Source: Candidatus Nanohaloarchaea archaeon | GTDB taxonomy: Archaea > Nanohalarchaeota > Nanosalinia > Nanosalinales > Nanosalinaceae | Direction: 5' to 3' | DNA: 24,348 nt | Assembly (NCBI GenBank): GCA_046539225.1 | Contig: JBKHHG010000007.1 | Span: 1-24,348 of the forward strand | In this document: positions 1-23,826 of the stretch, piece by piece | Layout of the letters: each line of letters begins with the position of its first letter | How positions within the stretch are numbered: the first letter of the stretch is position 1 | Program-made: the position numbers and the translations under genes | The notes under the pieces: generated by a model | Databases searched by the model: none | Seen by the model: the letters and a program-made list of their open reading frames with translations, nothing else | What the model was told of the DNA's origin: nothing

Positions 1-121
1 CAACTGAAAATTCTACTTCATCTTGAAAATAATCCTCAGAAGGCTCATCGATAGTAAGTGCAGAAACAGATCCGATCAGTAAGAATGTTAGTCCAAGCAG
101 TAGTAGGCCTCTAGATTTGAT
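1..121 (-). CDS. 5' part of a secreted or surface protein gene that runs off the window's left edge; apparent ATC start
   Basis: My translation of the minus strand from 121 is IKSRGLLLLGLTFLLIGSVSA-LTIDEPSEDYFQDEVEFSV: a basic N-region, a hydrophobic core, a VSA cleavage site and an acidic mature part. An in-frame TGA lies at 128-130, with no ATG/GTG/TTG between it and the signal peptide. Confidence 0.6.
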   Translation of the reverse strand, partial: MKSRGLLLLGLTFLLIGSVSALTIDEPSEDYFQDEVEFSV

Positions 122-162
122 GGTTAATCACTATGAACGGTTTGTTGACGGACATTTAAATT

Positions 163-1575
163 CTATTCCCGGGCGTCCTCGAACCTTTCGACCGCTTTTT
201 TCCTCTCCTCGTCGTGATCGATTATATGCCAGGGGTAATCTTCACCAATCATACAATCTGATTCATTCTGGGCAATCTGGCTCATTTCCTGAGGCCTGTG
301 AATGTATTCATTGGGAACATCTCTAAGTTCTGGAACCCATTCACGAATATACTTACCCGAGGGATCGTACTTTTCTCCCTGTTTCCAGGGATTGAAGACG
401 CGGAAGTAGGGCTGTGCGTCCGTCCCGATCGAATAGGCCCACTGGATCCCTCCGATCATCGAAGCCGTTTCTGCATCAACAAAGTTTCTGGAGAAGTATT
501 CGTGAAGATCTTTCCAGTTCAGCCAGAGGTCTTTACAGGCGAAAGAAGTGACGACCATTCTCAGCCTGTTATGCATCCATCCCGTCTTCTTCAACTGACG
601 CATTCCGGCGTCGACGAACGGAAAACCTGTCTTTCCATCGGTAAAGGCCTTCCAGTCATCCTTTGCTTCCTCTCTGCTTCGCCATTTAATGCTGCGGAAC
701 TGCTCCTGTAAGGCCTTTTCCCGGGACTCTGGAAAGTTGTAGAGCATCTGGAAGTAGAAGTCTCGCCACGCCAGTTCCTCCTGCCAGGTTTTAATCCCTG
801 AAGTATCTTCGTTCGGGTTCCTGGCTTTGATTCTCTCCGCTTCCCAGAAAAGTTCTCTAACACTGACAGCTCCAAACTTCAGGTGCGGAGAAAGTTTAGA
901 AGTAGAGTCTTTCCAGGCATAGTCTCGATCCTTGTCGTAACTCATTATCTTTTCCTTGAACTCCTCGAATTTTTCCTGGGCGCCTTCTCTACTCGGGTTC
1001 CAGCTCCAATCAAAGTTTTGAGGCCTTTCAAAGCCTAAATCCCTCAGCGAAGGAATCTCTTCGCTTTCAACTTCTGGAACCTCATATTTCTCGACTTCTT
1101 GAGGCCTCTCCTTATCTTTCTTGAACCATTTCTTGGCGTAATAGGTAAATGTCTGGTAAGGAGCGCCATCATTAGTTAAAATCTCATCTTTCTCGAACAT
1201 TACAAGATCCTTGAAGGATTCGATCTCTGCGTCGAGGCCTCTCACTTTTTCATCTCTTTCCCTCGCATACCCGGAGTAGTCGCGGTTGAAGTATACTTTT
1301 TCAGCACCTGTTTCTTCAACTATTTTTTGTAGCTCCTCGAATGGATCTCCTTTACGCACGACCAGGTTTTTCCCGTCTTCCTGCAAATCCTCCCGGAAGT
1401 TTTCCAGTGCATCGTGCCAGAACTTTACCCGGGGATAGCCTAAATCAGCTTTCTCAAAGTAGTTCTCATCGACCACGTAGAAAGGTATAACTTTGTCGTG
1501 TTCTTTCGAGGCCTCTACAAGCGCGGTGTTATCGTGTTCCCGCATCGATCTCCTGATCCAGGCGATCGCTACCAT
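163..1575 (-). CDS. phrB: Deoxyribodipyrimidine photolyase (class I CPD photolyase/cryptochrome family)
   Basis: N-terminal WIRRSMREHDNTAL; TSKLSPHLKFG; ELAWRDFY; GKTGFPFVDAGMRQL; GWMHNRLRM; FRVFNP; YIREWVPEL. Confidence 0.93.
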   Translation of the reverse strand: MVAIAWIRRSMREHDNTALVEASKEHDKVIPFYVVDENYFEKADLGYPRVKFWHDALENFREDLQEDGKNLVVRKGDPFEELQKIVEETGAEKVYFNRDYSGYARERDEKVRGLDAEIESFKDLVMFEKDEILTNDGAPYQTFTYYAKKWFKKDKERPQEVEKYEVPEVESEEIPSLRDLGFERPQNFDWSWNPSREGAQEKFEEFKEKIMSYDKDRDYAWKDSTSKLSPHLKFGAVSVRELFWEAERIKARNPNEDTSGIKTWQEELAWRDFYFQMLYNFPESREKALQEQFRSIKWRSREEAKDDWKAFTDGKTGFPFVDAGMRQLKKTGWMHNRLRMVVTSFACKDLWLNWKDLHEYFSRNFVDAETASMIGGIQWAYSIGTDAQPYFRVFNPWKQGEKYDPSGKYIREWVPELRDVPNEYIHRPQEMSQIAQNESDCMIGEDYPWHIIDHDEERKKAVERFEDARE

Positions 1576-1600
1576 GTGAAGTTTTTGAGGCCTTGTTCTT

Positions 1601-2260
1601 TTACTGGTTCTGGAAGTATTTGTCGAGTTTTTCTTTTCCTTCGGAGGGGCCTACCAGTATTATTTCGTCGCCTTCTTTGAGTATGGGGTCGTCGGATGCG
1701 TCGACGGTTTCGTCTTCTTTGAGTATTGTCGTGACTTTGAAGGCCTGAGGGAATTTGGAGTCGTTTTTCATCTGGTCGACGGTTGTTTCCATGAGACCGG
1801 AGTCTTCTTTTACTGATGCCTTCAGGATTTCCCGGTCGCCGGAAAGGTTGGAGAGTTTGACCAGGTAAGGATGTTCCACGGCCGATAAAAATTCGGAGAG
1901 CAGGAGGTCTGTGTGGCCTATTGTCTGGGCGCCGATTATTTCGAAGGCGTCGAAGTATTCGTCGTCTTCCAGTCTTGAGATGACTTTGGGGACTCCATAT
2001 TTTTTGGCGAGGCTGCATACGACCATGTTTTCGTTGTCGCCTTTCATGGTAGAGATCAGGATGTCCGCTTCTGTGATTCCTGCGTCTTCCAGTGCGGTCA
2101 GGGTGGCTGGCGATTTGTTTATGACTGTTGCACCGCTCGAGGAATAAAGCCTGTTGCATTTGTCTTCATTCTCTTCTACTACCACTACGTCGTGTCTTCC
2201 CTCAAGTCTTTCCACCAGTCTTCTTGAGAGAATGTTGATCCCTGCGATTATGACGTACAT
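1601..2260 (-). CDS. trkA: TrkA-family K+ uptake regulatory subunit (RCK-N plus RCK-C)
   Basis: LEDAGITEADILI, DNENMVVCSLAK.YGVPKVISR and ILKEGDEIILVG motifs; lies directly downstream of trkH. Confidence 0.88.
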   Translation of the reverse strand: MYVIIAGINILSRRLVERLEGRHDVVVVEENEDKCNRLYSSSGATVINKSPATLTALEDAGITEADILISTMKGDNENMVVCSLAKKYGVPKVISRLEDDEYFDAFEIIGAQTIGHTDLLLSEFLSAVEHPYLVKLSNLSGDREILKASVKEDSGLMETTVDQMKNDSKFPQAFKVTTILKEDETVDASDDPILKEGDEIILVGPSEGKEKLDKYFQNQ

Positions 2261-2263
2261 GGG

Positions 2264-3685
2264 TTAAGATGAGAGTACTTTCCTATTAAAGATTGCCAGA
2301 ACCGGCAGCATCTCCAGTCTCCCTGCTATCATTACAACTACCCAGACCATTTTTGCGGGGATCGAAAGGTTCACCATTTCAGCGCCTTCCATGTAGACCG
2401 GGCCCATGTTGCCGACGGCCGAGACAGTCCCGGAAAGCGCCCCCATAAACGAGACATCTTCCAGAAGCATCAGGAGGCCTGTAGCGGCGAACACCACGCC
2501 GATCCATGTAAATAACAGGACGCTGATGGTGTGGAGCATCGAGTTGTCAAGTATCTCTCCGTCGATCTTCACCTCGTTTATAGCGGTGCTTGGAAGCGAG
2601 TAACTCCTTAAACGGGTGCGGGTCAGCTCTATCAAGGCCTTGAGCCTGAATGTTTTGATGCCTCCGGAGGTCGAGCCGAGGGATCCTCCTACGAACATCA
2701 GGCCTATCAACATGAACTGTACAAACACCGAGAGAGACATTATGCTCATCGTGCCGTAGCCTGTGGATGAGAGCACCGAGGCAGACTGGAAAAGCGAGTC
2801 CAGAACGTTTCCGGCTGCAAGGCCTGAACGGGAGAGATCCAGGAAGATCAAAGCGGAGAACGCTACGAAAATCTTGATGTAGAGTCTGAACTCCGAGTTG
2901 TCGAAGATCGAGGAGTCAAGGTTCAAGGCCTTGTAGAGCAGCACAAAGTTGACACCGCCCAGGAGCATGAAGACAACGGTCACGGCCTGAATCGGGGTTC
3001 CGAAGGCTGCGATGCTTGCGCCGGTGGTGGAGAAACCTCCCGTTGATATGGCGGAGAATGCGTGGGCTACCGCGTTGAAAAAATTCATTCCAAGCATCGA
3101 GTAGGACGCGACCATGACACCGGTGATAAAGATGTAGACCTTCCAGAGCTCTATAATCGATTTCTTGAGTGAAGGCCTGATCGAGCCGGGATCGGTCTTA
3201 TGGGTTTCGGCGGAGAAAAGTTTTCTGGAGATACCGCCTGATTCCCTGATGACCGCGATGAAGAATGTAAGGACTCCGAGGCCTCCGACCCACTGCATCA
3301 ATGCCCTCCAGAAAAGCAGGGAAGGGTTCAAGGCCTGAGGCTCAAGGAACATTGAGATTCCCGTGGTTGTGAGGCCTGCGGTCGACTCAAAGACTGCGTT
3401 GGTGAGGCCTACCTCGACGAGGAACGGTATGGCTCCGAGGACTATCGCCAGGCTCCATCCCATCACGGTCGAGACCATTGCTTCGGATACGCTCGGCTCC
3501 TCGTAGTCTCCTATCCTGCCGAGCGAGACCCCGAGTATCAGCGATGCGATGGATGCGTAGAGAAAACCTGTCAACGCGAGGAACGATTCTCCATAGTAAA
3601 GGCCTACAGGGATTGGGAGGGCGATAACCGCTGTGAAGACCTTGAGGAAGCTTCCGAGTATTGCGGCCAGCACCTCTCCTCTCAT
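2264..3685 (-). CDS. trkH: TrkH-family K+ uptake membrane protein
   Basis: Polytopic membrane protein with four pore-loop glycine motifs (TTTG, STGG, STGY, NMGP), plus GGSLGSTSGGIK and MIAGRLE. Confidence 0.93.
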   Translation of the reverse strand: MRGEVLAAILGSFLKVFTAVIALPIPVGLYYGESFLALTGFLYASIASLILGVSLGRIGDYEEPSVSEAMVSTVMGWSLAIVLGAIPFLVEVGLTNAVFESTAGLTTTGISMFLEPQALNPSLLFWRALMQWVGGLGVLTFFIAVIRESGGISRKLFSAETHKTDPGSIRPSLKKSIIELWKVYIFITGVMVASYSMLGMNFFNAVAHAFSAISTGGFSTTGASIAAFGTPIQAVTVVFMLLGGVNFVLLYKALNLDSSIFDNSEFRLYIKIFVAFSALIFLDLSRSGLAAGNVLDSLFQSASVLSSTGYGTMSIMSLSVFVQFMLIGLMFVGGSLGSTSGGIKTFRLKALIELTRTRLRSYSLPSTAINEVKIDGEILDNSMLHTISVLLFTWIGVVFAATGLLMLLEDVSFMGALSGTVSAVGNMGPVYMEGAEMVNLSIPAKMVWVVVMIAGRLEMLPVLAIFNRKVLSS

Positions 3686-3781
3686 GTTTTTTACTCAGCG
3701 AGTCCGACATAAATAAGCTGCATGTTGAAAAAGATTTTTACCCAAGACTTTGATGTTCGGGAAACTGAGCGTGAACCTAAA

Positions 3782-4147
3782 ATGCAAATTAACATTGGTA
3801 CAGAGGACGGAGAAGTTTTTCAGGTAGAAACAGAAGCGGAAAACCTTGCAGGCAAACAGATCGGCGACAGCTTCAGCGGAGAGATTTTAGGCCTTGAAGG
3901 CTACGAACTCGAGATCACGGGGGGAAGTGACAGATCCGGGTTCCCGATGAGGCAGTCAATCAACGGCAGCGAAAGGGAACGGGTCCTTATCGAGGAAGGA
4001 TCCGGTGTAAGGCCTGAAGAAGACGGGGTCATGAAGAGAAAATCCGTCAGAGGCAACACTGTAAGCACCGAGATAGAGCAGCTTAACGCCAAAGTTGTCG
4101 AAGAAGGCAGCAAAAGCCTTGAAGAACTTCTAACCGAAGAAGAATGA
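3782..4147 (+). CDS. rps6e: 30S ribosomal protein S6e (eS6); start more likely the ATG at 3782 than 3722
   Basis: GYELEITGGSDRSGFPMR and RKSVRGN motifs; sits immediately upstream of aIF2-gamma, as is usual in archaea. Confidence 0.93.
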   Translation: MQINIGTEDGEVFQVETEAENLAGKQIGDSFSGEILGLEGYELEITGGSDRSGFPMRQSINGSERERVLIEEGSGVRPEEDGVMKRKSVRGNTVSTEIEQLNAKVVEEGSKSLEELLTEEE

Positions 4148-5328
4148 GCAAGATACCAGAAGTAAATATAGGCCTTGTAGGCCACGTAGACCATGGGAAG
4201 ACCACTTTAACACAGGCCTTGTCCGGCCAGTGGACGGACCGTCACAGCGAAGAACTCAAGAAAGGTATTACGATCAGACTCGGATACGCCGACGTAACAT
4301 ACTACAGAGACGAGGAAGGCCTGAACGTGGATGGAAACGGAGAAGTCGAACGCACAGTTTCTCTCGTGGATGCTCCAGGCCATGAAACCTTGATGGCCAA
4401 CGTTCTCTCCGGTTCAGCGATAATGGACGGCGCAATCCTAATGGTCGCTGCAAATGAAGAAGTTCCGCAGCCCCAGACCCATGAACACCTCGCAGTTCTG
4501 GACATGGCAGGAATAGAGAACATAATCATTGTACAGAACAAGATTGATCTCGTAGATGAGGAAGAGGCTAAGAAGAACTACGAGCAGATCAGGGAGTTTG
4601 TCGAGGGAACGGTCGCGGAAGACGCACCGATAATCCCTCTGTCAGCCCAGCATGAGGTCAATATCGACCTCTTGCTTGAAAAAATCGATGACGAGATCCC
4701 TACACCTGAAAGAGATGCCGAGGCCTCGCCGAAAATGCTTGTAGCGCGTTCATTCGACACCAACAAGCCTGGAACCTCTCCAGAAGACATGAGAGGTGGA
4801 GTAGTCGGCGGAAGCCTGACAAAAGGAAAGCTTGCTGTCGGAGACAAGATAGAGCTGAAGCCGGGCGTCAGAAAAGACGGGGAAAAATGGGAGACGGTTA
4901 AAACAGAGATTACAGGTATAATACAGGGAGATTCTCCTGTTGAAGAGGCGGTGCCTGGAGGCCTGATAGGTGTGGAAACAGAGCTGGATCCCTCAATGGT
5001 TAAATCGGACGGCCTGTCCGGGAACATTCTCGGTAAAGAAGGAGAACTCCCTGAGACAACCGAGGAGCTTGAACTTGACGTAGAACTGATGGACTCCCTG
5101 ATCGGGTCCGGAGAACAGGTAGAGATCGAGAACATTAAAGAGCACGAGGCCTTGATGGTTAACGTCGGCACAACAAAGTCCGCAGGCGTTGTAACCCAGG
5201 CAGGCAAAGACGTTAAAATCGATCTGAAGATGCCTGTATGCGCTGAAATCGGAGATAGAGCGGCTATAAGCCGTCAAATCGACTCTCGGTGGCGTTTAAT
5301 CGGCCACGGCAAAATCAAAGGTTTATAA
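4144..5328 (+). CDS. eif2g: Translation initiation factor 2 subunit gamma (aIF2-gamma)
   Basis: GHVDHGKTT, HSEELKKGITIRLGYA, DAPGHE, QPQT.EH, QNKID, SAQH, RSFD.NKPG and C-terminal RWRLIGHG. Confidence 0.97.
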   Translation: MSKIPEVNIGLVGHVDHGKTTLTQALSGQWTDRHSEELKKGITIRLGYADVTYYRDEEGLNVDGNGEVERTVSLVDAPGHETLMANVLSGSAIMDGAILMVAANEEVPQPQTHEHLAVLDMAGIENIIIVQNKIDLVDEEEAKKNYEQIREFVEGTVAEDAPIIPLSAQHEVNIDLLLEKIDDEIPTPERDAEASPKMLVARSFDTNKPGTSPEDMRGGVVGGSLTKGKLAVGDKIELKPGVRKDGEKWETVKTEITGIIQGDSPVEEAVPGGLIGVETELDPSMVKSDGLSGNILGKEGELPETTEELELDVELMDSLIGSGEQVEIENIKEHEALMVNVGTTKSAGVVTQAGKDVKIDLKMPVCAEIGDRAAISRQIDSRWRLIGHGKIKGL

Positions 5329-5367
5329 AAAGAGGGATCTCTACATTGATTGTAAGGTGGAACAACC

Positions 5368-6873
5368 TTGAGCCTTCTCTCCCAGTTAATAAATTTTGTA
5401 ACAGCAGAGAGCCTCGCGGTCCGGATATCGGTAACCCTTTTGATACTCGTACTGGGGCATCTCACGGTAAGAATCTACAGGAGAATAACTGAAAGAGTAT
5501 TCATAGAGGGAAAAGACTTCAACAGAAAACAGTTAAAGGCCTACAAGGACCGGATACAGTACTCAACCTACGCATTAAACGCAGGAATTATAGGCGCGGC
5601 TTTGTTCTACCTCAACGCCGACATAAGTAGAGAACTGTACACGGGAGTGGTTTCAGCCCTGCCAAACCTGTTCTCAATAATTTTAGTCGCCATACTTGGA
5701 ATAATAGGAGTCAACATCTTCACAAAACTTACAACAGACTTTTTCAAGACCGTAGGATTTGAAAAGTACATCCGGGACGCAGGAATCTCACGCGAAATCA
5801 CCCAGGTAGGCGAGATACTGTTCAAATCGGTTCTCTACCTATTAATCCTCCAGTTTATACTTGCACAGGCCGGTCTGGCGGAAAGCACAATGCAAGAGTT
5901 TGTAAGGGCCGCGGCCTGGTCGATCGCAGTACTGATCGCAGGCCTGATGTTCTACGGCTTCAAAGACCTTTTCCACAACCTGGCATCTGGAATGTACCTC
6001 AAGAACTCGAGAGCGGTCAGGCCTGGAGAACAGGTCCAGATAGATGGAGAGACCGGAGAGATCCAGAACGTCTCCCTTTTCTCCACCGAGATAAACACCC
6101 AGGACGGCTACACCTTGATGGCGCAAAACAGGGAAGTAGTAAGATCCAAGTTCAAGTTCAAGAGATCAAAAAGCGATATAGAAACGCTCGAAGAAATAAT
6201 CGACTACTTTGTAGCCGATAGAGAAGGATACAGCGGCCCAGCCTCAATCGAAATGGCGCTCGACATCCTTGGCTACAGTATAACACAGGAGGATATCGCA
6301 GAAAAAAGCCTTGAAGACGAAGAGATCCAGAGAGAGAAAATGATGGAAGCAGTAGAACAGATGACCGACGGAGACGTAAAAACCGCCTGGATCGAATCAG
6401 AATCAATCAGCGACCTTGAAGACGAGTTCAAGGCCTGGTTCAACGATGGAGGCCTGATAGTGCCGCGGTTCGAAAAATCCGAGATCTTCCCGGGCGAGGA
6501 AGAAGGAGAATACGCGCTTTCAGTAGGAGTGGAAGACGGAGAAGTCCTTGTAGTTGATCCAAGCCCTGAAAGCGGCGGGGTATACTACATCAACAAGGAC
6601 AGACTGACGAACGCGATCTCTGGACACGGCTACATAGTCTTCGCCCCGGAAGGAACACAGGCCTACTGGCGTATCAAGAAAGGCCTGATCTACTCCGATA
6701 AAAGCTACTACGACGAGCTCTCCAAGGCGCTTGAGAGCAAGCTTCGGAGGATTATGAGGCAGGGACGGATCCTGAAAGATGTGATGCCTGAAGAGGTTGA
6801 AAAGTACGCGGAGAACTGGCGTTCGGATGAGAAGATCTCAAGAGTCTGGAGGCCTGAACAGGTGGAAGAGTGA
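5368..6873 (+). CDS. MscS-family (CmpX-like) membrane protein fused to a C-terminal C39-peptidase-like domain that appears inactive
   Basis: About five TM helices, then an MscS beta-domain (GEQVQIDGETGEIQNVSLFSTEINTQDG). After that come GYSGPASIEMAL.ILG..ITQEDIAE and GEYALSVGVEDGEVLVVDP, which match the C39 pattern with Cys replaced by Ser and His by Glu. TTG start follows an AAGGTGG SD-like sequence. Confidence 0.75.
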   Translation: MSLLSQLINFVTAESLAVRISVTLLILVLGHLTVRIYRRITERVFIEGKDFNRKQLKAYKDRIQYSTYALNAGIIGAALFYLNADISRELYTGVVSALPNLFSIILVAILGIIGVNIFTKLTTDFFKTVGFEKYIRDAGISREITQVGEILFKSVLYLLILQFILAQAGLAESTMQEFVRAAAWSIAVLIAGLMFYGFKDLFHNLASGMYLKNSRAVRPGEQVQIDGETGEIQNVSLFSTEINTQDGYTLMAQNREVVRSKFKFKRSKSDIETLEEIIDYFVADREGYSGPASIEMALDILGYSITQEDIAEKSLEDEEIQREKMMEAVEQMTDGDVKTAWIESESISDLEDEFKAWFNDGGLIVPRFEKSEIFPGEEEGEYALSVGVEDGEVLVVDPSPESGGVYYINKDRLTNAISGHGYIVFAPEGTQAYWRIKKGLIYSDKSYYDELSKALESKLRRIMRQGRILKDVMPEEVEKYAENWRSDEKISRVWRPEQVEE

Positions 6874-7682
6874 AACTCCTTATAATTTCGGAGAACTCCC
6901 TGGAAAGATTCGAGGATTATTTTGAGGAGGTTGACAGGGCCCGGATCGATGAAGTGGCTCCAGAGGTGAGGGACAGGGGAAACGATATCAAGATCGAAGG
7001 CGAAAGCATCAGAAAATACGACTGCGTCTACACCGAGATACCCGGCAAAAACGCGGTCTTCGGCCGGGTACTGCTTGAAATGATTGAAGACGAGAGAATA
7101 CCTGTAAACCACTCATCCACAGGTTTCTTCGTATCGGCGAAGAAAAACTATCTCTACTACACACTCCACGAACAGAATATACCAGCCGCGAAGACCGCAA
7201 TCTTCTCGACAGAAAAGGCCTCAAGAAGCATCGAAAAACAGTTGAAAGGCCCTGTAGTCGGCAGAAAGTTCGAAAACCTTGAAGAAGTGGAGAACAGAAA
7301 GATCGACACCGTCGACAGCATAAGCGAGTTTGTAGAAGGAGCAGAATACCAGGAAGACCTCTTCATATTCCACGAACACAGGCCTGGAGACAAGATAAAG
7401 TGCCTTGTGATCGAAGACCAGGTTATAGGCCTTAGAGACGACTCTGAAGGCTGGAGGTTCAAGGATAAAAACCTTAAATACTCAAATATCTCCGATAGAA
7501 AAGAAGAGATCGTTAAAACCACCGCAAAAAAGATAGGAGCACCTATGGCCGAAGTAATGCTCAGGGGCGATAAAGTCTACGATGTAAACCCTAATCCAGA
7601 TCTCGAGCGGTACACCCAGCTCTCCGGCAAAAACGCCTTCGAAGCAGCAGCAGAAATGCTGAAACAGGAGGCCTCAAAATGA
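6870..7682 (+). CDS. RimK-like ATP-grasp fold protein, degenerate
   Basis: RimK-like layout (IPVN..S, KNYLYYTL.EQNIP..KT, GPVV, DVNPNP), but no K...GxxGxGV loop and no RxN motif. Confidence 0.65.
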   Translation: MKLLIISENSLERFEDYFEEVDRARIDEVAPEVRDRGNDIKIEGESIRKYDCVYTEIPGKNAVFGRVLLEMIEDERIPVNHSSTGFFVSAKKNYLYYTLHEQNIPAAKTAIFSTEKASRSIEKQLKGPVVGRKFENLEEVENRKIDTVDSISEFVEGAEYQEDLFIFHEHRPGDKIKCLVIEDQVIGLRDDSEGWRFKDKNLKYSNISDRKEEIVKTTAKKIGAPMAEVMLRGDKVYDVNPNPDLERYTQLSGKNAFEAAAEMLKQEASK

Positions 7683-8560
7683 AGCTCGCAGTAGTCTACG
7701 GAGAAATATCCACAAAGCACCAGTTAATAATGAAGAGAGCCGAGGAAATATTCGATAAAGTTCTTGGAGCCCCTGTAGACGGGCTGAAATTTATACACGG
7801 CGAAGAAGACCAGGTGCTCTACAAAGACACCGATCTAACAGAGTTCGACGCAGTATACATCCGTGTAGACGACAGAGATATGATGCTTGCCGAACATCTC
7901 GCCGAAATACTGAACAACAACGGCGTTGTGACACAGGCAGAAGACGACACATTTGCATACGACTCAAACAAGTTCTACAACATGAAAATACTGGCTGAAA
8001 ACGGGATAAACGTTCCTGACAGCGTCTACACTCTTTCACCAGACGTGGCAGTGAACGCAGCGGAAGATCTCGGCTACCCGGTGATAATGAAGACTATAAG
8101 AGGTGCTGGAGGCCAGGGAGTTATGAGAGCCAGCTCTGAAAACGAGTTAAAACCTGTAATGGACACGATGAAATCCTTTGAACAGGAGATATGCTTGCAG
8201 GAGTACGAAGAGCACAACGGCACCGATAAACGAGTTATAGTTATAGGAGACTTCGTTGAGGCCTACGGAAGATCAAGCAACGGAGACGACTGGAGATCAA
8301 ACATTTCAGCCGGAGGAGAGAGAACCGAAACAGAGTTGACGGATGAAATGCGTGAAAAGGCCTTGACCTCAGCCAGGTCTACCGGCTTCGATATCTGCGG
8401 CTGCGATATGATCGAGACAGATGAAGGCCTGTACATTCTCGAGGTTAACGCGGCTTTCGCCGTCAACGAGAAAATGAATGAGATAATAGGCAGAGACGTG
8501 ATACTGAAGATAGTGGAGAGAATGCATGAACGGGCCCAGGAAAAGAAGCGTCAGGCCTGA
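7679..8560 (+). CDS. RimK/LysX-family ATP-grasp ligase (alpha-L-glutamate ligase-like)
   Basis: NKFYNMKIL..NGINVP, YPVIMKTIRGAGGQGV, LQEY, DKRVIVIG, WRSNIS.GG, GCDMI and LEVN are all intact. Confidence 0.9.
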   Translation: MKLAVVYGEISTKHQLIMKRAEEIFDKVLGAPVDGLKFIHGEEDQVLYKDTDLTEFDAVYIRVDDRDMMLAEHLAEILNNNGVVTQAEDDTFAYDSNKFYNMKILAENGINVPDSVYTLSPDVAVNAAEDLGYPVIMKTIRGAGGQGVMRASSENELKPVMDTMKSFEQEICLQEYEEHNGTDKRVIVIGDFVEAYGRSSNGDDWRSNISAGGERTETELTDEMREKALTSARSTGFDICGCDMIETDEGLYILEVNAAFAVNEKMNEIIGRDVILKIVERMHERAQEKKRQA

Positions 8561-10418: not shown

Positions 10419-10472
10419 AACAGGATTCTATTCCTCTACATTCTTAATAGATTTAATTACCTACACAGATGC

Positions 10473-13291: not shown

Positions 13292-13325
13292 AAAAAGGCC
13301 TCCAAAAAAAACCGAGGTAAAGATC

Positions 13326-13475: not shown

Positions 13476-13496
13476 CTTTCTTTTATCTACTTCCTT
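13476..13496 (+). terminator. Pyrimidine/T-rich archaeal terminator-like tract
   Basis: CTTTCTTTTATCTACTTCCTT directly after the rps27ae stop codon. Confidence 0.45.
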
Positions 13497-13542
13497 GAAG
13501 GTATAGAGCTTAAAAAGGCCTCTATGGACACACCATTAAACA

Positions 13543-13550
13543 TTTTACAT
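13543..13550 (+). promoter_or_regulatory. TATA-box-like element of kae1 (leaderless spacing)
   Basis: TTTTACAT 23-30 nt upstream of the ATG at 13573; the same ATTTTACATTC occurs at 19491-19501. Confidence 0.45.
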
Positions 13551-13572
13551 TCAAAACCTCAGATAGAAGAAA

Positions 13573-14520: not shown

Positions 14521-14524
14521 GTAA

Positions 14525-16769: not shown

Positions 16770-18427
16770 TCTCAACCCTCACCCTGATATTCCTGACAGC
16801 CTCCGCAGTACTCCTGCTTTTCCACAGGTTCGATCATCCAGCGATACCCGCATACATCATCGCAGGAATTATAGTAGGAGGGATAACAGGCCTAGAACCC
16901 TTCATCACTCAGGAACTCCTGAACGGGGCTATACCCGAGATCACTCTTGTCGAAGACCAGCTGCTGAACCTGGCCCAGCTCGGGATCGCGTTCCTGGTCT
17001 TCACGTTCGGCCTAAAGTTTGACCCCCAGAGACTGCGACAGGAGGCCTCGGTCAGCCTCGACACCACCGCAGCCCAGATATTCGTTATAGGCGCTATAGC
17101 ATACTTTACAGGCCTCCAGCTCGGATTCACAAGCATGGAGAGTGCAATCTTCAGCACAGCCGCCGCTTTAAGCAGCTCCCTGGTAGGCCTCCAGTTAGCG
17201 GACAGAGAAATCCAGAACGACCTACTGCACGGAAGAATATCCGAATCAATCCACCTTATACAGGATCTGATAGGCCTCGCGCTTATCACAGTGCTCTTCG
17301 CCTCCACAGTCTCGAGTTCGCTACACGCTCTCGGAGCCGCAACCTCTGTAATCATCCTGGCCCTTCTGATAAGAGAGTACGGCTTCGACTTTGTAGCAGA
17401 TCAGTCTAATTACAGCACCGAACTTATGATGCTCGCAGGCCTCACCTCGCTTATAGGAATGATCGCTTTGACCTCCTACCTCGGGCTTCCGATGGTTATA
17501 GGCTCTTTCGCCGCAGGACTTACCGCGGCAAAGTTCCCGCACAACATGGAGCTGCTTGACACGCTGGGATCGTTGAAGGATTTTTTCTCAGCAATATTTT
17601 TCGTGGCGCTTGGCGCCCTGATATCCATACCCGATCCAAAAACTATTTTATCGGCTTTTCTGCTTGTACTTCTTACATCGATGCTTAAACCCTTTGTAAC
17701 CTACAAAAGTCTTGTCTTTGAAGGCCTTGATCCGAGGACTTCAATGCTTTCAGCTCTAAGCCTTGACCAGGTCAGCGAGATCGCGTTGATCGTGGCGATC
17801 CAGGCCTTCCTCACAGAGATGATCTCGGGACAGGTCTTCAACTCGGTTATAATCGCGGCAACGTTCTCGATGCTTACCTCGTCTTACACTAAGAGACACG
17901 AAGAATGGATCTACCAGAAGTTGAAACCGGACAGAGAAGTAGGCGAAAAAGTAAACCTGGAGGACCACGTGATAGTCGTCGGCTACCACGTACAGGGCAT
18001 AAGAGTAGTGGACTCGCTTCTCGAGGAGAACGCCCGGGTCGCGGTGATAGACAACGACCCTGAAAAAGTCTCCACAGTCGAAGAAAGAGGTATCCCTGGA
18101 GTCTACGGCGATATCATGGACAAAGAGACCTGGCAGGAGGCCAACTTTACAGAAGCAAAACTGGTGGTCTCGACGGTTCCCTCCTTCCGAGTATCCAAAA
18201 AGATAATGGAGCTTGAAGAACCTGAAGACAAGATAGTCAGGGCGGAAAACATGGAAGAGGCCTCAATCCTCCTGAACCAGGGAGCGGTACACGTCATCGT
18301 TCCAGACCTTGCATCCTCGGAAATACTGATCGACCACATAGAAGGAATTATACACAACGAAAACTACCGGGAAGAACTCAGGAGGAAAAGCCTTTTAGAA
18401 CTAAGAGAATACCTCGAAACACAATGA
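16760..18427 (+). CDS. Kef-type (CPA2) K+/H+ antiporter with C-terminal RCK-N domain, copy 2
   Basis: PAIPAYIIAG, LGIAFLVFTFGL, SSSLV, LIQD, GSFAAG, LKDFFSAIFFVALG and QVSE motifs; HVIVVGY...VYGD RCK-N. Confidence 0.9.
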   Translation: MEIISTLTLIFLTASAVLLLFHRFDHPAIPAYIIAGIIVGGITGLEPFITQELLNGAIPEITLVEDQLLNLAQLGIAFLVFTFGLKFDPQRLRQEASVSLDTTAAQIFVIGAIAYFTGLQLGFTSMESAIFSTAAALSSSLVGLQLADREIQNDLLHGRISESIHLIQDLIGLALITVLFASTVSSSLHALGAATSVIILALLIREYGFDFVADQSNYSTELMMLAGLTSLIGMIALTSYLGLPMVIGSFAAGLTAAKFPHNMELLDTLGSLKDFFSAIFFVALGALISIPDPKTILSAFLLVLLTSMLKPFVTYKSLVFEGLDPRTSMLSALSLDQVSEIALIVAIQAFLTEMISGQVFNSVIIAATFSMLTSSYTKRHEEWIYQKLKPDREVGEKVNLEDHVIVVGYHVQGIRVVDSLLEENARVAVIDNDPEKVSTVEERGIPGVYGDIMDKETWQEANFTEAKLVVSTVPSFRVSKKIMELEEPEDKIVRAENMEEASILLNQGAVHVIVPDLASSEILIDHIEGIIHNENYREELRRKSLLELREYLETQ

Positions 18428-18984
18428 TACAGGGAGCAGAAGCAGAAGTCACAGTGAAGGAGGAAAAAGTCATCAAGGAGAGGCCTGAAAAAAATTATCG
18501 CCACCCGGAGCTCGATAAAAGAATCAGAAGGCAGAGAACACAGACAGAGCACAGCACACTAAAAAAATCACTTAGAAACAGTGTAAACGTTCCGAAAGTC
18601 GAGAAAACCTCGGAATACAGATTGAAACTGGAGAAGATAGATGGAAAAACTTTAGAGGAAGAGTTCAGGCCTGAAAAATTGAAGGACGTCGGTAAAAACC
18701 TGGAAAAACTCCATGAATCAGGCCTCATCCACGGAGACCTCACCACCAGCAACATAATCGCAAACGAAGAAATCTACATTATAGACTTCGGCCTTTCACA
18801 GGAATCCTCAAAGACAGAGGACAGAGCGGTCGACCTACACCTCCTGAAGCAGATGCTCCAGAGCTCGCACCCTGAAAACTTTGAAGAGGCCTGGAACAAC
18901 TTTCTCAAAGGCTACAGGCCTGAATTCAGAGAGGAAGTATTGGAAAGGTTAAATGACGTGGAGGAGAGAGGCCGTTACAAGTAA
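18424..18984 (+). CDS. bud32: KEOPS kinase/ATPase Bud32
   Basis: GAEA, K.R..K.YRHPELD, HGDLTTSN, IDFGL, EDRAVDL and RGRY. Confidence 0.95.
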   Translation: MIQGAEAEVTVKEEKVIKERPEKNYRHPELDKRIRRQRTQTEHSTLKKSLRNSVNVPKVEKTSEYRLKLEKIDGKTLEEEFRPEKLKDVGKNLEKLHESGLIHGDLTTSNIIANEEIYIIDFGLSQESSKTEDRAVDLHLLKQMLQSSHPENFEEAWNNFLKGYRPEFREEVLERLNDVEERGRYK

Positions 18985-18987
18985 AGT

Positions 18988-19482
18988 ATGAAATACCTGT
19001 TTCCCGCTGCCTTGACATTCCTGATTTTAGGGTTTGGAGCCTTTTTCCCCGGTCACGAAATGGTAGGCCTTGAGAAAGTAGTGGATGGAGATACCATCGA
19101 CACTGAGAACGATACAGTCCGGTTTTTAGGGGTTGATACGCCTGAAGTATCTGAATTTTCCGGGAACGATCCCGGTGATTACGGCCTGAAAAATGATTCC
19201 GACACAGTCGATTGCCTTGACCGTTTCGGCGAAGAGGCCTCAAACGTTGTGGATAACAATACGAGAGACGAAGTGAGACTTGTTTTCGACAGGCGATCCG
19301 ATGACCGCGGCGAATACGATCGGAGGCTTGCCTACATTCAAACTGAGGGCGATTTGACGCGGAAGCTCCTGGTAGAAGGCCTTGCACGGGTTTATCCCTC
19401 AGGTTTTTCTCGATCGAATGAGTTCTACTTCTGGGAAGCGGTCGCAAAGAAGAATGGTAGAGGCCTCTGGAGCTGTGACTGA
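18988..19482 (+). CDS. Thermonuclease (SNase-like), secreted or membrane-anchored
   Basis: N-terminal hydrophobic signal; VVDGDTI, VRFLGVDTPE, YDRRLAYI, LLVEGLARVY and RGLW. Confidence 0.9.
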   Translation: MKYLFPAALTFLILGFGAFFPGHEMVGLEKVVDGDTIDTENDTVRFLGVDTPEVSEFSGNDPGDYGLKNDSDTVDCLDRFGEEASNVVDNNTRDEVRLVFDRRSDDRGEYDRRLAYIQTEGDLTRKLLVEGLARVYPSGFSRSNEFYFWEAVAKKNGRGLWSCD

Positions 19483-19512
19483 TATAAAAAATTTTACATT
19501 CCTTTGGAGGTT

Positions 19513-19624
19513 AGAGCGGTGAAGTCCGAGAGGCTGAGCCGTGTCGGCAACACAACGTGATACTATAATGAACGAAATTCGAAGAATTTCTGGCTACGCA
19601 GAAACTCATAGAGGTGAGTTTTGA
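19513..19624 (+). promoter_or_regulatory. Structured 5' leader of rps15 (candidate r-leader)
   Basis: Hairpins at 19516-19542, 19541-19553, 19574-19590 and 19602-19621; the last overlaps the SD GAGGTGA at 19611-19617. Confidence 0.55.
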
Positions 19625-20056
19625 GTGGCTAAGATGCATTCTGACGGAAGAGGAAGCAGTGGAAGCGAAAAACCTTTGGACGAGTCCCAACCTGACTGGG
19701 TCGACTACGACAAGGAAGAAGTAGTCGATCTCGTGCTGAAGCTGAGAGACGAAGGCCTTCAGCCAGCGCAGATAGGCCTCAGGTTGAGGGATCAGTACGG
19801 GATTCCCGATGTGGAGCAGATCACCGAGAACTCGGTAACCGAGATCCTCGAGGAGAACGATGCCTCCCTTAAAGTCCCGGAAGACCTTCAGAACCTTATA
19901 GAAAAGGCGGAAAAGATCCAGGAACATATAGAAGATAATCCTGAGGACGCCCAGGCCCAGAGACGGCTGGAACTGACAGAGGCCAAGATCAGGAGGATCG
20001 CTTCCTACCACCGTGAAAACGGCAACATCGACGAGGACTGGAACTACTCCCGATAA
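19625..20056 (+). CDS. rps15: 30S ribosomal protein S15 (uS15/S13e)
   Basis: MAKMH..GRGSSGS.KP, IGL.LRDQYGIPDV, PEDL.NL and L.LTEAKIRRI..Y; GTG start with SD. Confidence 0.96.
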   Translation: MAKMHSDGRGSSGSEKPLDESQPDWVDYDKEEVVDLVLKLRDEGLQPAQIGLRLRDQYGIPDVEQITENSVTEILEENDASLKVPEDLQNLIEKAEKIQEHIEDNPEDAQAQRRLELTEAKIRRIASYHRENGNIDEDWNYSR

Positions 20057-20077
20057 CCGGTTCAGGCCTTAAAACCC

Positions 20078-20094
20078 TTTTTCACGGCTTTTTT
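20078..20094 (+). terminator. Oligo-T terminator-like tract after rps15
   Basis: TTTTT at 20078-20082 and TTTTTT at 20089-20094. Confidence 0.45.
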
Positions 20095-20139
20095 ATCGGA
20101 AAAGAAACCAATAACCCTTTGGAGGAGAATTGAAGAGTT

Positions 20140-21498
20140 ATGACACTAAAAGAGATAAGGGATCAGGCCTCTGAAGCAGTTGAAAAGATCAAAGAGTTTG
20201 ATGAAAAGATCAGGCTGGTGGGGCAGTACGACGCCGACGGCATCTCCGCCACAGCCATCGCACACCAGATGCTGGAAAGAGCGGGGAAAAACTTTGAGTA
20301 CGAAATACTGAAGCAGCTCTACGACGAAGACGTTAAACGACTAAAGGAAGAGGAAGAAGGCCTCATACTTTTCGTGGACATCGGATCAGGAAAGGCCTCA
20401 AAAATAGAAGAGATTCTCATGGATGAAAAAGAGGTAGTGGTGTCAGACCACCACGAGCCCTCGGAGAAGGGGAGCTTCCCGCATATGAACCCGCATTTTC
20501 TCGGGTTCGATGGAGGGGAGGCAATCTCCGCCGCAGGCATGACTTTTGTCCTGGCGCACGAGTACGACGAGGAAAACATCGACCTGGTCGAATACGCGTT
20601 GATTGGTGCGACGGGAGATATGCAGAAGCAGGGCGGCGAGTTTATAGGCCTGAACGCAGAGCTTGAAGAACTCGCGCTTGAAAACGGTATAATCGAAAAA
20701 CGGCAAGGCCTCGATCTCTACGGCAGAACCACCAAACCGTTGAAGGACTCGCTGAAGTACACTACAGACCCTTACCTCCCTGGCATATCAAACGATGAAA
20801 ACGGGGCAGTCCAGTTCGTCCAGAAACACGGCGTAGAGATCAGGAAAGACGGAGAGTTCCGCACACTGAGCGACCTCACCGAGAAAGAAGAGAAAAAACT
20901 GATAAACGGACTTATAAAGACCGGAAGGCCTGTACAACCGCTTCTGAATGATATCTACACCTTGAAAAACGGTTACGAGATAGGAGAGTTCTCCACAGTT
21001 ATCAACGCGTGCGGAAGACTTGGAAGAGCTGAAGAAGGAGTAGAAATACTTGTAAACCAGGACCTCGAGCTCGCGGACCGGATCTCAACCGCTTACGGTA
21101 GAAAGATCAGCGAATCACTCCGGTTCGTGGAGGAAAACCAGGAAAACGAGGAATACATATATGAAAGAGACGGCCTCGGAGTAATAGACGCAGAAGATAA
21201 TATCCAGGACGATTTCATAGGAACTGTCTCCACCATCAGCATGTCAAACGGATTTTTCGACTCGGAAGTGGTGATGGGTGTAGCAGAGATGGAAGACGAG
21301 AAATCCAAGGTCTCAGCACGGGCCTCAAAAGACGCGGTGGAGAAAGGCCTCAACCTGGGCGACATTATAGGAGAAATATGCGAGGAACTGGATGGAGAAG
21401 GAGGAGGCCACAACGTAGCAGCAGGAGCCAAGATCCCGCGAGAAAACAAGGACAAGTTTATAGAGATGCTGGGGAACAAGATTTCGCAGGAATATTGA
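20140..21498 (+). CDS. DHH-family RecJ/GAN (Cdc45-like) nuclease with DHHA1 domain
   Basis: DADG, DIGSG, DHH, NP, GATGD, NACGR and GGGH.VAAG motifs; conserved position between rps15 and rps3ae. Confidence 0.9.
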   Translation: MTLKEIRDQASEAVEKIKEFDEKIRLVGQYDADGISATAIAHQMLERAGKNFEYEILKQLYDEDVKRLKEEEEGLILFVDIGSGKASKIEEILMDEKEVVVSDHHEPSEKGSFPHMNPHFLGFDGGEAISAAGMTFVLAHEYDEENIDLVEYALIGATGDMQKQGGEFIGLNAELEELALENGIIEKRQGLDLYGRTTKPLKDSLKYTTDPYLPGISNDENGAVQFVQKHGVEIRKDGEFRTLSDLTEKEEKKLINGLIKTGRPVQPLLNDIYTLKNGYEIGEFSTVINACGRLGRAEEGVEILVNQDLELADRISTAYGRKISESLRFVEENQENEEYIYERDGLGVIDAEDNIQDDFIGTVSTISMSNGFFDSEVVMGVAEMEDEKSKVSARASKDAVEKGLNLGDIIGEICEELDGEGGGHNVAAGAKIPRENKDKFIEMLGNKISQEY

Positions 21499-21504
21499 AT
21501 ATGG

Positions 21505-21512
21505 TTTATAAA
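21505..21512 (+). promoter_or_regulatory. TATA box of rps3ae (leaderless spacing)
   Basis: TTTATAAA 23-30 nt upstream of the ATG at 21535; no SD sequence. Confidence 0.6.
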
Positions 21513-21534
21513 GTTTTGATTTTGAACCCTTGGT

Positions 21535-22086
21535 ATGGCTAAAGCAGTACTGCAGAAAAACTGGTACGAAGTCCAGGCCCCAGAAATATTCGATGAAGAA
21601 GTAATCACAGAGACACCGGCAGAGAAGGAAGAACAGGTGGTCGGCAGAACAGTAAAGGAAGGCCTGAACGATTTGATGGACTCCAGCGACAAGTACTACG
21701 CGGACGTCACCCTGAAAGTTACAGAAGTCGAAGGAAACAAGGCCTTCACAGAGATCAGCGAGATGAGTGTATCATCAGAGTTCGTCTCAAGAATGATAAG
21801 GACAGACACGGACAGGTTCGACCTCGTCGAAGAATTCGAAACCAAGGATGAAGAAACCGTCAGGGTCAAGGTCGTCGGCGCAACACTCAGAAAGGCCTCG
21901 GGAAAACAGCATAAAGCAGTCAGAAACGAGATCAGCCAGATAATCGAGGAACGGGCCTCCGAACAGACATACGAAGAATTCATGGAAAACATCTTCACCG
22001 ACAGAATCCAGGAAGAGTTCCGCGAAAAAGCGGAGAAGATCTACCCGTTCAGAGAACTCGAGATCAGAAAAACAGAGCTCAAATAA
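21535..22086 (+). CDS. rps3ae: 30S ribosomal protein S3Ae (eS1)
   Basis: K.WYEV.APEIF, ETPA, GRTV, TKD...VRV and KIYP.R.LEIRK. Confidence 0.93.
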   Translation: MAKAVLQKNWYEVQAPEIFDEEVITETPAEKEEQVVGRTVKEGLNDLMDSSDKYYADVTLKVTEVEGNKAFTEISEMSVSSEFVSRMIRTDTDRFDLVEEFETKDEETVRVKVVGATLRKASGKQHKAVRNEISQIIEERASEQTYEEFMENIFTDRIQEEFREKAEKIYPFRELEIRKTELK

Positions 22087-22150
22087 AGGCCTAAATTCTT
22101 CAACAAAACTCAACTTAATTAAACGTCCCAGGCCTCAAAATATCCAGAAA

Positions 22151-22292
22151 GGGTCCGTAGCTCAGTCCGGCAGAGCACCAGGCTCTTAAAGGAACTTCTG
22201 AAAGTTCCACCATCACAGACCATTCCACGGAATGGCCCAGAGAAGGCCTGAGAGATACCTGGCAGCCGCGGGTTCAAATCCCGTCGGACCCA
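22151..22292 (+). tRNA. tRNA-Lys (CTT) with a 68-nt intron at the canonical 37/38 position (22189-22256)
   Basis: Acceptor stem GGGTCCG/CGGACCC; D-stem GCTC/GAGC; anticodon stem CCAGG/CCTGG; CTT at 22185-22187; T-arm GCGGG-TTCAAAT-CCCGT; BHB-like central helix CTCT/AGAG. CCA is not encoded, and a T-rich tract follows. Confidence 0.93.
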
Positions 22293-22317
22293 TATTTCTT
22301 TTAAGAAAATGCTTTAA

Positions 22318-22386
22318 GAAGCAAATTCAATTTGCTTCGACCCAAACGAAGATTCGTTTGATCAATCAAGGTGCGCGAGGCATCTT
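22318..22386. repeat. Three tandem inverted repeats (hairpins) between tRNA-Lys and the SDR gene
   Basis: GAAGCAAAT-TCA-ATTTGCTTC (22318-22338); CAAACGA-AGAT-TCGTTTG (22343-22360); AAGGTGC-GCGAG-GCATCTT (22368-22386, one G-T pair). Confidence 0.8.
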
Positions 22387-22425
22387 ACCGAAGCAATCAA
22401 ATACAGGCCTCCACAATTTAACTGC

Positions 22426-23295
22426 ATGAAAGTGTACGTCACCGGAGGCACAGGATTTGTAGGCTCTCATCTATCACATAAACTGGCGTGGGCCGGCCAC
22501 GAGGTAACGCTTGGAGGCCTTTCAACCGACTCCCCTATCGAACTGCCGGAAGATGCAGAAATCGAGCGGATCGATGTAACAGATCCTGATACTCTGGATT
22601 TTGAAGGTTTCGACGCAGTCATCCACCTGGTAGGCCTTTCACCGCTTTTCAAGCCGAATGTTTCTTACCACAGAATTCACGTGGAAGGCACGGAAAACGT
22701 TTTACAGGCCTGTAGAGAAGCCGGAGTAAATCGATATATCCATATGAGCGCGCTGGGAGCAGATCCTGGCGCAGAGACCCAGTACCTGTGGACAAAGGGA
22801 GAGGCCGAGGACGCCGTGAAGAACTCGGGCCTTGACTGGACTGTTTTCAGGCCTTCAGTAATTTTTGGAGAGGGCGGAGAGTTCCTCAACTTTACAGAAT
22901 CTATCCTGACGCCTTTCATCGCTGCACTGCCCCGTTCAAACCCGGGTTTCCAGCCTCTTTATGTTGAAGATATCGGCGACCTGTTCGTGGAAGCTGTCGA
23001 AGATGAAAAACATATTCGTCAATCATACGATCTGGGCGGTCCAGAGGCCTACTCATTGAAAGAGATCGCGGAGATGATAGAGGCCTCAAAGGGTAGAAAC
23101 CTGACAGCTCTTCCGCTTCCGATGACCATAGTCAAAGCAGGGATGACCCTGAGCGATAAACTCGGGCTGAAGTTCGGCATGGACCAGTACCGATCCCTGA
23201 AAAAGGATAATATTCCAGATAAAAACGATGTCGACGCCTTCAGGAAAAACGTTGAAAAAATGAAAAATCTGGAACAGTATTTAGGCCTTGAATAA
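22426..23295 (+). CDS. NAD(P)-binding atypical SDR (NDUFA9-like epimerase/dehydratase family)
   Basis: VTGGTGFVG, VIHLVG, HVEGT.N, HMSALGA, YLWTK and FRPSVIFG. Confidence 0.9.
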   Translation: MKVYVTGGTGFVGSHLSHKLAWAGHEVTLGGLSTDSPIELPEDAEIERIDVTDPDTLDFEGFDAVIHLVGLSPLFKPNVSYHRIHVEGTENVLQACREAGVNRYIHMSALGADPGAETQYLWTKGEAEDAVKNSGLDWTVFRPSVIFGEGGEFLNFTESILTPFIAALPRSNPGFQPLYVEDIGDLFVEAVEDEKHIRQSYDLGGPEAYSLKEIAEMIEASKGRNLTALPLPMTIVKAGMTLSDKLGLKFGMDQYRSLKKDNIPDKNDVDAFRKNVEKMKNLEQYLGLE

Positions 23296-23328
23296 AGATA
23301 TCTAAAGATCAGACCTGAAGATAAAGTT

Positions 23329-23826
23329 ATGGAACTCTCCCGCGAAGAGTTCAGGGAAGAAGCTACAGAAGCCACTCTGCTCTTCATAATCCAAGACGGA
23401 GAAGCACTTTTAATCGAGAAGAAACGTGGTGTCGGAGAAGGATTGTTCAACGGTCCAGGCGGTAAACTGGAAGGAGTTGAGACTCCTGAAGAAGCCGCGA
23501 TAAGGGAGACAATGGAGGAAACCTGTGTAAATCCTCTTAAAGTTGAGAAAATGGGTGAACTGGAGTTCCTGTTTGGCGACGACCCGTTTATGTTTGTCCA
23601 TGTTTTCAAAGCCTCAGACTTTACCGGAACACCTGAAGAGACGGAAGAAGCAAGGCCTGAATGGTTCGACACCGAGAATCTTCCGTTCGAGGAAATGTGG
23701 CCGGACGACCGCTACTGGATGCCGAAAATGCTGGAAGAAGAAAAATTCTCCGCCAGATTCTATTTTGACGAGGAAGGCAACGAAATACAGGATCACAAGT
23801 TCAGACCTCCAGAATTCCAGAACTGA
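23329..23826 (+). CDS. NUDIX hydrolase, 8-oxo-dGTP diphosphatase (MTH1/NUDT1-like)
   Basis: NGPGGKLE..ETPEEAAIRE..EET Nudix box; EE.RP.WF and MWPDD.YW.P motifs. Confidence 0.88.
   Translation: MELSREEFREEATEATLLFIIQDGEALLIEKKRGVGEGLFNGPGGKLEGVETPEEAAIRETMEETCVNPLKVEKMGELEFLFGDDPFMFVHVFKASDFTGTPEETEEARPEWFDTENLPFEEMWPDDRYWMPKMLEEEKFSARFYFDEEGNEIQDHKFRPPEFQN

Follow-up and report, generated by a model that had tools for sequence, protein, structure and literature searches.

The stretch of 24,348 nucleotides analysed here (the window) is contig C7 of a draft nanohaloarchaeal genome from a microbial mat, designated G000 (82% complete; 607 kb, i.e. 606,781 bases in 38 contigs). Its proteins look archaeal and acidic, and the element under study is the palindromic hexamer AGGCCT, which is dispersed over the whole window. 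The first-pass annotation of this DNA had estimated about 138 exact copies, a more than 20-fold enrichment. The exact number is 138, from position 105 to 23653-23658; dinucleotide shuffling of the window (100 replicates) gave 6.27 copies on average and never more than 13, so the excess is 22-fold. The next commonest palindromic hexamers reach 13 copies, and the single-flank variants, put earlier at about 5-15 each, were counted at 5-13 (CGGCCT 13, GGGCCT 11, AGGCCC 7, the remaining three 5-7). The described use of all three frames in genes of both strands was likewise found: 129 of the 138 sites are inside called genes (20, 36 and 44 by frame on the plus strand; 7, 11 and 11 on the minus strand). 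The other nine lie outside called genes (Table 1) and comprise every non-coding position listed before, plus one more.

One of these nine falls, as had been proposed, in a tRNA intron. The tRNA itself is placed by Rfam, and ARAGORN with introns allowed locates the beginning of the intron at offset 39; the default ARAGORN setting called no tRNA in the window. Among the 27 intron-aware tRNA calls of G000, five hold a site, and all five are intron-bearing.

Table 1. Location of AGGCCT sites and site-bearing features in the window
Feature	Position	Strand	Remarks
Dispersed set, 138 AGGCCT	105..23658	.	every 176 bp on average (genome: every 213 bp)
129 in-gene sites	163..23826	both strands	read as Arg-Pro, Glu/Lys/Gln-Ala-x, x-Gly-Leu
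Site outside called genes	105..110	.	missing from the earlier non-coding list
Intergenic site	1588..1593	.	
Close site pair, 19 bp apart	6431..6455	.	a rare case; pairs < ~30 bp are depleted genome-wide
Intergenic site	13296..13301	.	
Intergenic site	13516..13521	.	
Intergenic site	20064..20069	.	
Site immediately 3' of a stop codon	22087..22092	.	gene 21535-22086
Intergenic site, upstream of tRNA	22130..22135	.	
tRNA-Lys(CTT) with 68-nt intron	22151..22292	+	intron ~22189-22256 holds site 22244-22249; Rfam, intron-aware ARAGORN
Intergenic site	22405..22410	.	

Excess of AGGCCT over chance and codon usage

The enrichment is not limited to the window: AGGCCT occurs 2,850 times in G000 (4.7 per kb) and is present on all 38 contigs, at 1.7-5.8 per kb each. 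The 712 genes predicted with our own caller contain 2,485 of these sites (438, 916 and 1,131 by frame), compared with a mean of 438 and a maximum of 472 in 20 synonymous-codon shuffles of the same genes. The excess also survives a dicodon Markov null, whose expectation the motif itself raises, in the two frames in which the site spans three codons (915 observed vs 493, and 1,117 vs 621), and short intergenic DNA holds 177 sites where 4.6 are expected (38-fold). Synonymous opportunities for the site are filled in 2,449 of 3,086 cases in G000 (79%), vs 286 (9%) expected, an odds ratio of 38. The corresponding odds ratios in the comparison genomes are 35 in the site-rich G010 (1,119 kb), 11 in the complete site-rich G034 (916 kb) and 0.6 in the complete site-poor G024.

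The earlier statement that bias of codons or amino acids is insufficient to explain the motif thus holds. Such bias, or an assembly or synthetic artefact, could find a foothold in AGG-CCT being the commonest dicodon. This explanation is already refuted by the use of three frames and both strands, the 38-fold intergenic excess, the sites in tRNA introns, the occurrence of the trait in 12 genomes, and the contigs of two public runs (one study, possibly the same source sample) that cover the window with few differences. The enrichment is confirmed as real, strong and specific, and the idea of an active process keeping a dispersed palindrome at the DNA level, like the highly iterated palindromes (HIPs) of cyanobacteria, is supported.

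Distribution among related genomes

We surveyed 70 genomes of the phylum (0.5-1.7 Mb, sizes rounded). Twelve are site-rich, with ~2.0-4.7 sites per kb. G003 follows with 0.95 and G063 with 0.7, and none of the remaining 56 exceeds 0.6 sites per kb. The rich genomes belong to the genera g1 (4 of 5 genomes), g7 (3 of 3), g19 (3 of 3, including the congeneric G022 and G034) and g2 (2 of 6). Because kin genomes are not independent, tallies across genomes are given without a statistical test. In an RNA-polymerase tree of 31 genomes (FastTree), whose deep nodes are weak, the rich genera interleave with poor ones, the genus g21 being sister to g1; the trait may have arisen once and then been lost, or it may have been gained repeatedly.

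The trait is labile, since it is on or off within two genera (g1 and g2). Among the congeners of G000 (G002-G004), the close sisters G002 and G003 have 3.5 and 0.95 sites per kb, respectively. In the rpoB region, two of ten G002 sites are intact in G003 and the other eight are one-off words there, all of them G/C to A changes, a pattern that would be expected had the force stopped acting. Site density is also lower in islands, with 1.5-2.0 per kb in two islands of G010 (vs 4.0) and 0.1-1.5 in four regions of G034 (vs 2.0).

At least 80 long viral loci with three spaced sites were present among the matches listed, and none of these matched the rich genomes; a query with an integrase-like protein found no viral relative. 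The best viral locus, L236 (IMGVR_UViG_3300006867_000009), is a phage with a non-acidic-looking proteome and 47 dispersed AGGCCT in 20 kb. In this phage WGGCCW is favoured and SGGCCS almost absent, the top hexamers are GATCGC and GCGATC, and a small methyltransferase (MTase)-like open reading frame (9101-9691) carries an NPPY motif and has no Pfam match. The scan of all genomes for the site, in which the matches listed were dominated by tandem repeats, says nothing on absence from other phyla.

Site conservation and change of proteins

The peptides that the site encodes are themselves over-represented. EAS, KAS and QAS occur in G000 at 2.6-2.8 times, and RP at 1.65 times, the compositional expectation, compared with 0.7-1.0 in G024. 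Among 211 sets of four-way orthologues, peptides that hold a site and are private to a single lineage numbered 395 in G000 (vs 183 control peptides) and 286 in G010 (vs 165), with no excess in G034 (168 vs 176). The excess in G000 and G010 implies that the pressure for the site continued separately in at least two lineages.

Existing sites are also conserved beyond coding needs. Four-fold degenerate positions within sites diverge less than those elsewhere in all seven pairs of rich genomes (0.045-0.42 vs 0.46-0.68; for example 0.08 vs 0.55 and 0.045 vs 0.50), with only 22-50 in-site positions available per genome pair, and 25-38% of sites are common to rich genera, against 11-13% of control hexamers. 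The fraction of opportunities filled in G000 is similar in all classes of protein conservation (0.74-0.85). Sites are sparser in stretches containing rRNA, in low-GC islands and in some usually highly expressed genes (S-layer-like, EF-1a), although the EF-2 and RpoA' genes of G000 are filled with them. At gene ends in G000, G010 and G034, the frequency of sites rises ~1.7-2-fold near stop codons, and few sites occur at start codons; free sequence space may lie behind this pattern.

Recognised core, flanks and spacing

One-off words were counted only where the full site is not encodable, so the decay of full sites does not explain them. The six word pairs in which GGCC is broken stand at 1.0-1.5 of expectation in G000, like those of G024 (0.9-1.4), whereas the core-keeping pair AGGCCC/GGGCCT reaches 3.7 in G000 and 3.5 in G010, and the other two core-keeping pairs 1.2-1.6. 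Enrichment extends to all three AGGCCN pairs in G034 (3.2-5.0). Intergenic one-off counts agree with the coding ones. Half-sites outnumber full sites at the G022 loci (65 to 48), compared with 1,125 half-sites to 2,850 full sites in G000. Outside the hexamer A is only weakly preferred at +3/+4 and is avoided at +1; CAGGCCTG accounts for 157 of the 2,850 G000 sites, and the next outer base is not fixed. The element is therefore a required GGCC core with graded A/T flanks, which g1 and g7 keep almost strictly and g19 more loosely. The GGCC core guessed in the first-pass annotation was right.

Sites are spaced in a characteristic manner. Pooled over G000, G010 and G034, site pairs separated by 6-35 bp have 0.55 of the expected density; the value is 0.86-0.95 for separations of 36-155 bp and ~1 for longer ones, while other palindromes are not depleted at short range (0.99-1.49) and pairs of opportunities for the site have a density much closer to 1. 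Half-sites are similarly scarce near full sites (0.4-0.7 under 30 bp in G000, vs 1.04-1.08 for core-broken controls). The G000 fill falls from ~0.9 to 0.67 when another site lies within less than 20 bp and to 0.36 with one at less than 10 bp; as these values still exceed the 0.09 baseline, they indicate a diminishing return and not a prohibition. Sites and half-sites thus avoid each other within ~30-45 bp, in the manner of a footprint. No periodicity of sites was seen between 6 and 80 bp, and a Fourier test of the complete G034 alone gave no clear period (top power 5.9 times the mean, at the scale of the whole or half genome). The variance/mean ratio of site counts in G010 is 0.75-0.88 at 0.2-2 kb.

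A proposed DNA-binding factor

The palindromic form, the essential core, the graded flanks and the exclusion of half-sites fit a dimeric protein with a 30-45-bp footprint. We propose a sequence-specific DNA-binding factor, probably dimeric, whose preferred site is AGGCCT and which would require the GGCC core, prefer A/T flanks and cover ~30-45 bp. Each occupied site would give a small advantage, so that selection would write the site into nearly every place able to hold it, even by means of an amino-acid change, and a second site within one footprint would add less. The per-site strength (ln odds ~3.6) outweighs the choice of wobble base and fixes changes of amino acids. The resulting coat may mark the chromosome as self, being a labile, defence-like trait rather than a part of core chromosome architecture. 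We infer protein binding, selection as the force and self-marking as the function, and we hold the combination of the three tentatively, giving it somewhat less than an even chance. The switching of the trait between close relatives suggests lability of the kind seen in defence; a defence-like role is also suggested by the contrasting fate of GGCC where relatives carry a restriction pair (described below) and by the poorer islands.

An architectural signal that positions histones or another nucleoid protein is, by comparison, quite improbable. Archaeal histones have footprints of 30 bp (dimer) and 60 bp (tetramer), near the length of the exclusion zone; histones are encoded in rich and poor genomes, and the G010 variance/mean ratio would suit such a role. 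Yet there is no helical or repeat-length periodicity, the histones are near-identical in rich and poor genomes (compared by eye), and the trait switches within genera.

A more serious rival, although still unlikely in our judgement, is molecular drive without benefit. Here a factor that recognises the site would bias gene conversion or repair, acting between strains or between copies of the chromosome, in favour of the allele whose site is intact. Steric occlusion would then account for the short exclusion zone. The near independence of sites beyond ~45 bp, with no long-range saturation, the similar fill of all protein-conservation classes, the lack of short and clear long periods, and the persistence of lineages that lose the trait all suit this explanation, and a possible agent, NucS, is present in 34 of 37 genomes. 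However, no NucS residue follows the trait (highest separation 0.61, vs 0.83 in an RNA-polymerase control). Moreover, synonymous divergence beside the sites is flat (0.97-1.13 of the gene-matched expectation, with divergence near saturation), which reveals neither a local antimutator effect nor a repair or mutagenic patch. Strain differences in the window point both ways: 16 of 18 clusters lie at most 60 bp from a site (p=0.007, with a post hoc cut-off), but the same 18 clusters give p=0.18 by mean distance, and the analysis is based on 40 of 109 differences. None of these 40 breaks a site and one (23235) creates AGGCCT, numbers too few to interpret. Two dense clusters of strain differences (14621-14638 and 14708-14787) look like imported patches.

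Methylation, repair and uptake genes

The first-pass annotation had considered a cognate MTase and methyl-directed repair; neither is borne out. PF00145 (C5 MTase) matches were found in 14 of 61 genomes, the sole rich one being G004, where the gene lies beside an AAA-type gene on a short contig; no C5 MTase was found in G000 or in the rich single-contig genomes G005, G010, G022 and G034. PF01555 (N4/N6 beta-class) gave short C-terminal matches or none in G000, G001, G002, G004, G005, G010, G025, G026 and G034, and is full-length among rich genomes only in G022. PF02086 (D12) is absent from the five rich genomes searched, and strong PF02384 matches of type I HsdM size occur only in G005 and G022. 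The rich genomes thus appear, as judged from these four Pfam families, to have no canonical DNA MTase in common. Regex scans found no protein with a DNA-MTase motif pair in the complete G034 proteome and no DndC-like motif in four proteomes including that of G034 (a regex scan only, with no profile search). MutS is absent from the five genomes searched, four rich and one poor.

A GGCC-type MTase does exist in the phylum, in site-poor relatives. HaeIII and NgoPII cut GGCC, and G024 encodes an M.HaeIII-like C5 MTase (E 1.8e-95) adjoining an NgoPII-family nuclease (L120:491-2386). The same pair, with 87% and 75% identity to the proteins of G024, is present in G020 (L031), a member of another genus. 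With 97 and 73 sites, G024 and G020 are two of the three family genomes poorest in sites, and GGCC is depleted in G024 (observed/expected ratio, O/E, 0.41). Among the C5 loci compared, this pair is found only in poor genomes. GGCC is also nearly missing from the rpoB loci of G019, G021 and G023.

These data make a ratchet of the HIP1 type improbable. In such a ratchet GGCC would be modified by an unrecognised enzyme or by one of the haloarchaeal host, and modification-directed repair would create the sites. In its favour, an essential core with tolerated outer bases matches Elhai's description of HIP1 (PMC4390886), the GGCC core of the alternate cyanobacterial HIP CAGGCCTG is methylated (PMC13756078), and trans-cellular methylation is claimed in the title of PMC11001535. 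Against this stand the absence of a shared MTase of the four families, the G034 proteome with neither motif in the regex scans, the absence of MutS, and the fact that a HaeIII-like MTase accompanies depletion of GGCC.

That the motif serves DNA uptake or exchange, in the way proposed for HIP1 and established for DNA uptake sequences (DUS) and uptake signal sequences (USS), is hardly credible. The poverty of recent islands would be in keeping with it, and PMC13756078 ties HIP1 to uptake machinery; but DprA is absent from 36 of 37 genomes, its sole carrier being site-poor, ComEC is absent from the five rich genomes searched, and a pilin-cluster protein does not track the trait.

Search for the causal gene

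Proteins of G000, of the complete G034 and of the first 500 kb of G010 (out of 1,119 kb) were contrasted with those of the complete G024. Ten candidates, absent or divergent in G024 or with a role in repair, were followed across relatives; the contrast also yielded a MazG-like protein, a cupin, several unknown proteins and 193 further G034 proteins, 12 of which were included in a Pfam scan. The DnaG-like protein is present in 39 of 61 genomes and does not follow the trait; with this query its gene was not found in the tested g21 and g15 members G024, G036, G018 and G030, two of them single-contig. Three winged-helix proteins were rejected, i.e. one of 69 aa (in 36 of 61 genomes), one of 65 aa (full-length in most rich and poor genera, with only weak matches in the rich G005 and G025) and one of 89 aa (without a diagnostic recognition helix). 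Endo_dU is absent from the rich G005 and present in the poor G017, and the pilin-cluster protein is absent from G005 and present in G017 and G023. The Cdc6 paralogue and the esterase were each found in all five genomes examined, a 116-aa protein without assigned function in none of five, including the rich G004 and G005, and an RHH-nucleotidyltransferase in 39 of 50. Two Atlas look-ups named no family. In G034 (L158:6717-10433) an NAD-dependent DNA ligase gene adjoins that of a PolX-PHP protein, and neither was found in G024.

Several of these results, together with others, count against a selected, self-marking binding factor. No binding protein was found, and none of the ten candidates follows the trait across relatives; neither NucS nor the histones distinguish rich from poor genomes. 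The contrast included a single poor genome, an 82% draft (G000) and 45% of G010, and its power is limited by the incompleteness of the rich set and by gene loss in G024, which lacks many genes retained in other poor genomes. A self mark directed against a processive nuclease should saturate at kb spacing, but the density rises to the footprint limit, which fits drive equally well. The islands are only partly poor in sites and may simply be recent, and no nanohaloarchaeal virus was found in which avoidance of the site could be tested. Selection and drive are indistinguishable with these data. The best reading is that a sequence-specific binding factor favours each site, through either selection or conversion drive. 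The causal gene may be a further protein of the contrast, a variant of a shared protein or a gene of the host.

Relation to known systems

AGGCCT resembles HIP1 (GCGATCGC; Elhai 2015, PMC4390886; Xu et al. 2018, PMC5861425) in being dispersed, independent of frame and lost in some lineages, conserved beyond codon needs, and built of an essential core with more tolerant outer bases. It differs in being archaeal and 6 bp long, with short-range exclusion and no clear long-range period, and the AGGCCT-rich genomes have no shared cognate MTase and no MutS that could be found. Its density (2,000-4,700 per Mb) compares with 300-2,700 in most HIP1-rich cyanobacteria, according to PMC4390886, where four HIP1-rich strains without a CGATCG MTase provide a precedent for the absence of such an enzyme. 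The alternate HIP CAGGCCTG of Synechococcus sp. PCC 6312 contains AGGCCT and has the same GGCC core (PMC5861425, PMC13756078). It is an octamer of one bacterium, with GGCC a known methylation target (PMC13756078), whereas the rich nanohaloarchaea have no fixed next base and no GGCC MTase was found in them. AGGCCT behaves like a HIP in its sequence-level features, but no shared cognate methylase and no MutS were found, so we do not place it in the HIP1 system.

DUS/USS and Chi are likewise short words built up genome-wide inside genes by way of a recognising protein. They are non-palindromic and tied to ComEC/DprA competence or to RecBCD, and Chi is strand-polarised. AGGCCT, by contrast, is a palindrome with a shortage of close pairs, and the rich genomes searched yielded neither ComEC nor DprA. 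Restriction-modification of the HaeIII/NgoPII type, present in G020 and G024, involves the same four-base core and goes with depletion of GGCC, an effect of the opposite sign; AGGCCT, being enriched and not avoided, does not fit a type II restriction target.

In the portions seen of PMC4390886, PMC5861425 and PMC13756078, HIPs are described for cyanobacteria and archaea go unmentioned. The nanohaloarchaeal methylome papers PMC11001535 and PMC10266531 report GDGCHC methylation in one strain, with no GGCC in the main text as far as available, and their supplements (8 and 3 files, respectively) contain no AGGCCT text. No description of an archaeal HIP, or of AGGCCT in Nanohaloarchaeota, was found in the literature searched, most subscription papers being outside reach.

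The reason for HIP1 iteration in cyanobacteria has been open for ~30 years, with models based on methylation, MutS repair or DNA uptake. The archaeal case described here equals or exceeds HIP1 in density, and none of the three machineries was found. It is possible, though we would place it a little below an even chance, that in DPANN symbionts a mobile system independent of methylation recognises AGGCCT, in unmodified form, as a mark along the whole chromosome, with a specificity that drifts between genera from strict hexamer to half-site, and that it is gained and lost within genera and rewrites proteins. If so, a HIP-like phenomenon that works with neither a methylase nor MutS would be shown for the first time, and comparison of congeners could reveal the gene responsible; the 1-Mb genomes and the on/off pairs inside one genus (g1, g2) make the cause narrowable by whole-genome comparison. 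A force acting at the DNA level and altering the proteins of a reduced symbiont also bears on how codon usage, binning and phylogeny are read in this group.

Other features of the window and the genome

Two adjacent minus-strand genes of the window (8551-9483 and 9480-10418) encode ATP-grasp paralogues with a near-identical peptide stretch in common, and the contigs of run X1 break in this part of the window. The adjoining gene (10473-11621) has a MATCAP (tyrosine carboxypeptidase-like) match. The tetranucleotide CTAG is strongly avoided across G000 (133 copies, O/E 0.14), and the rpoB loci of its congeners G002-G004 contain 11-18 CTAG in 4.8 kb.

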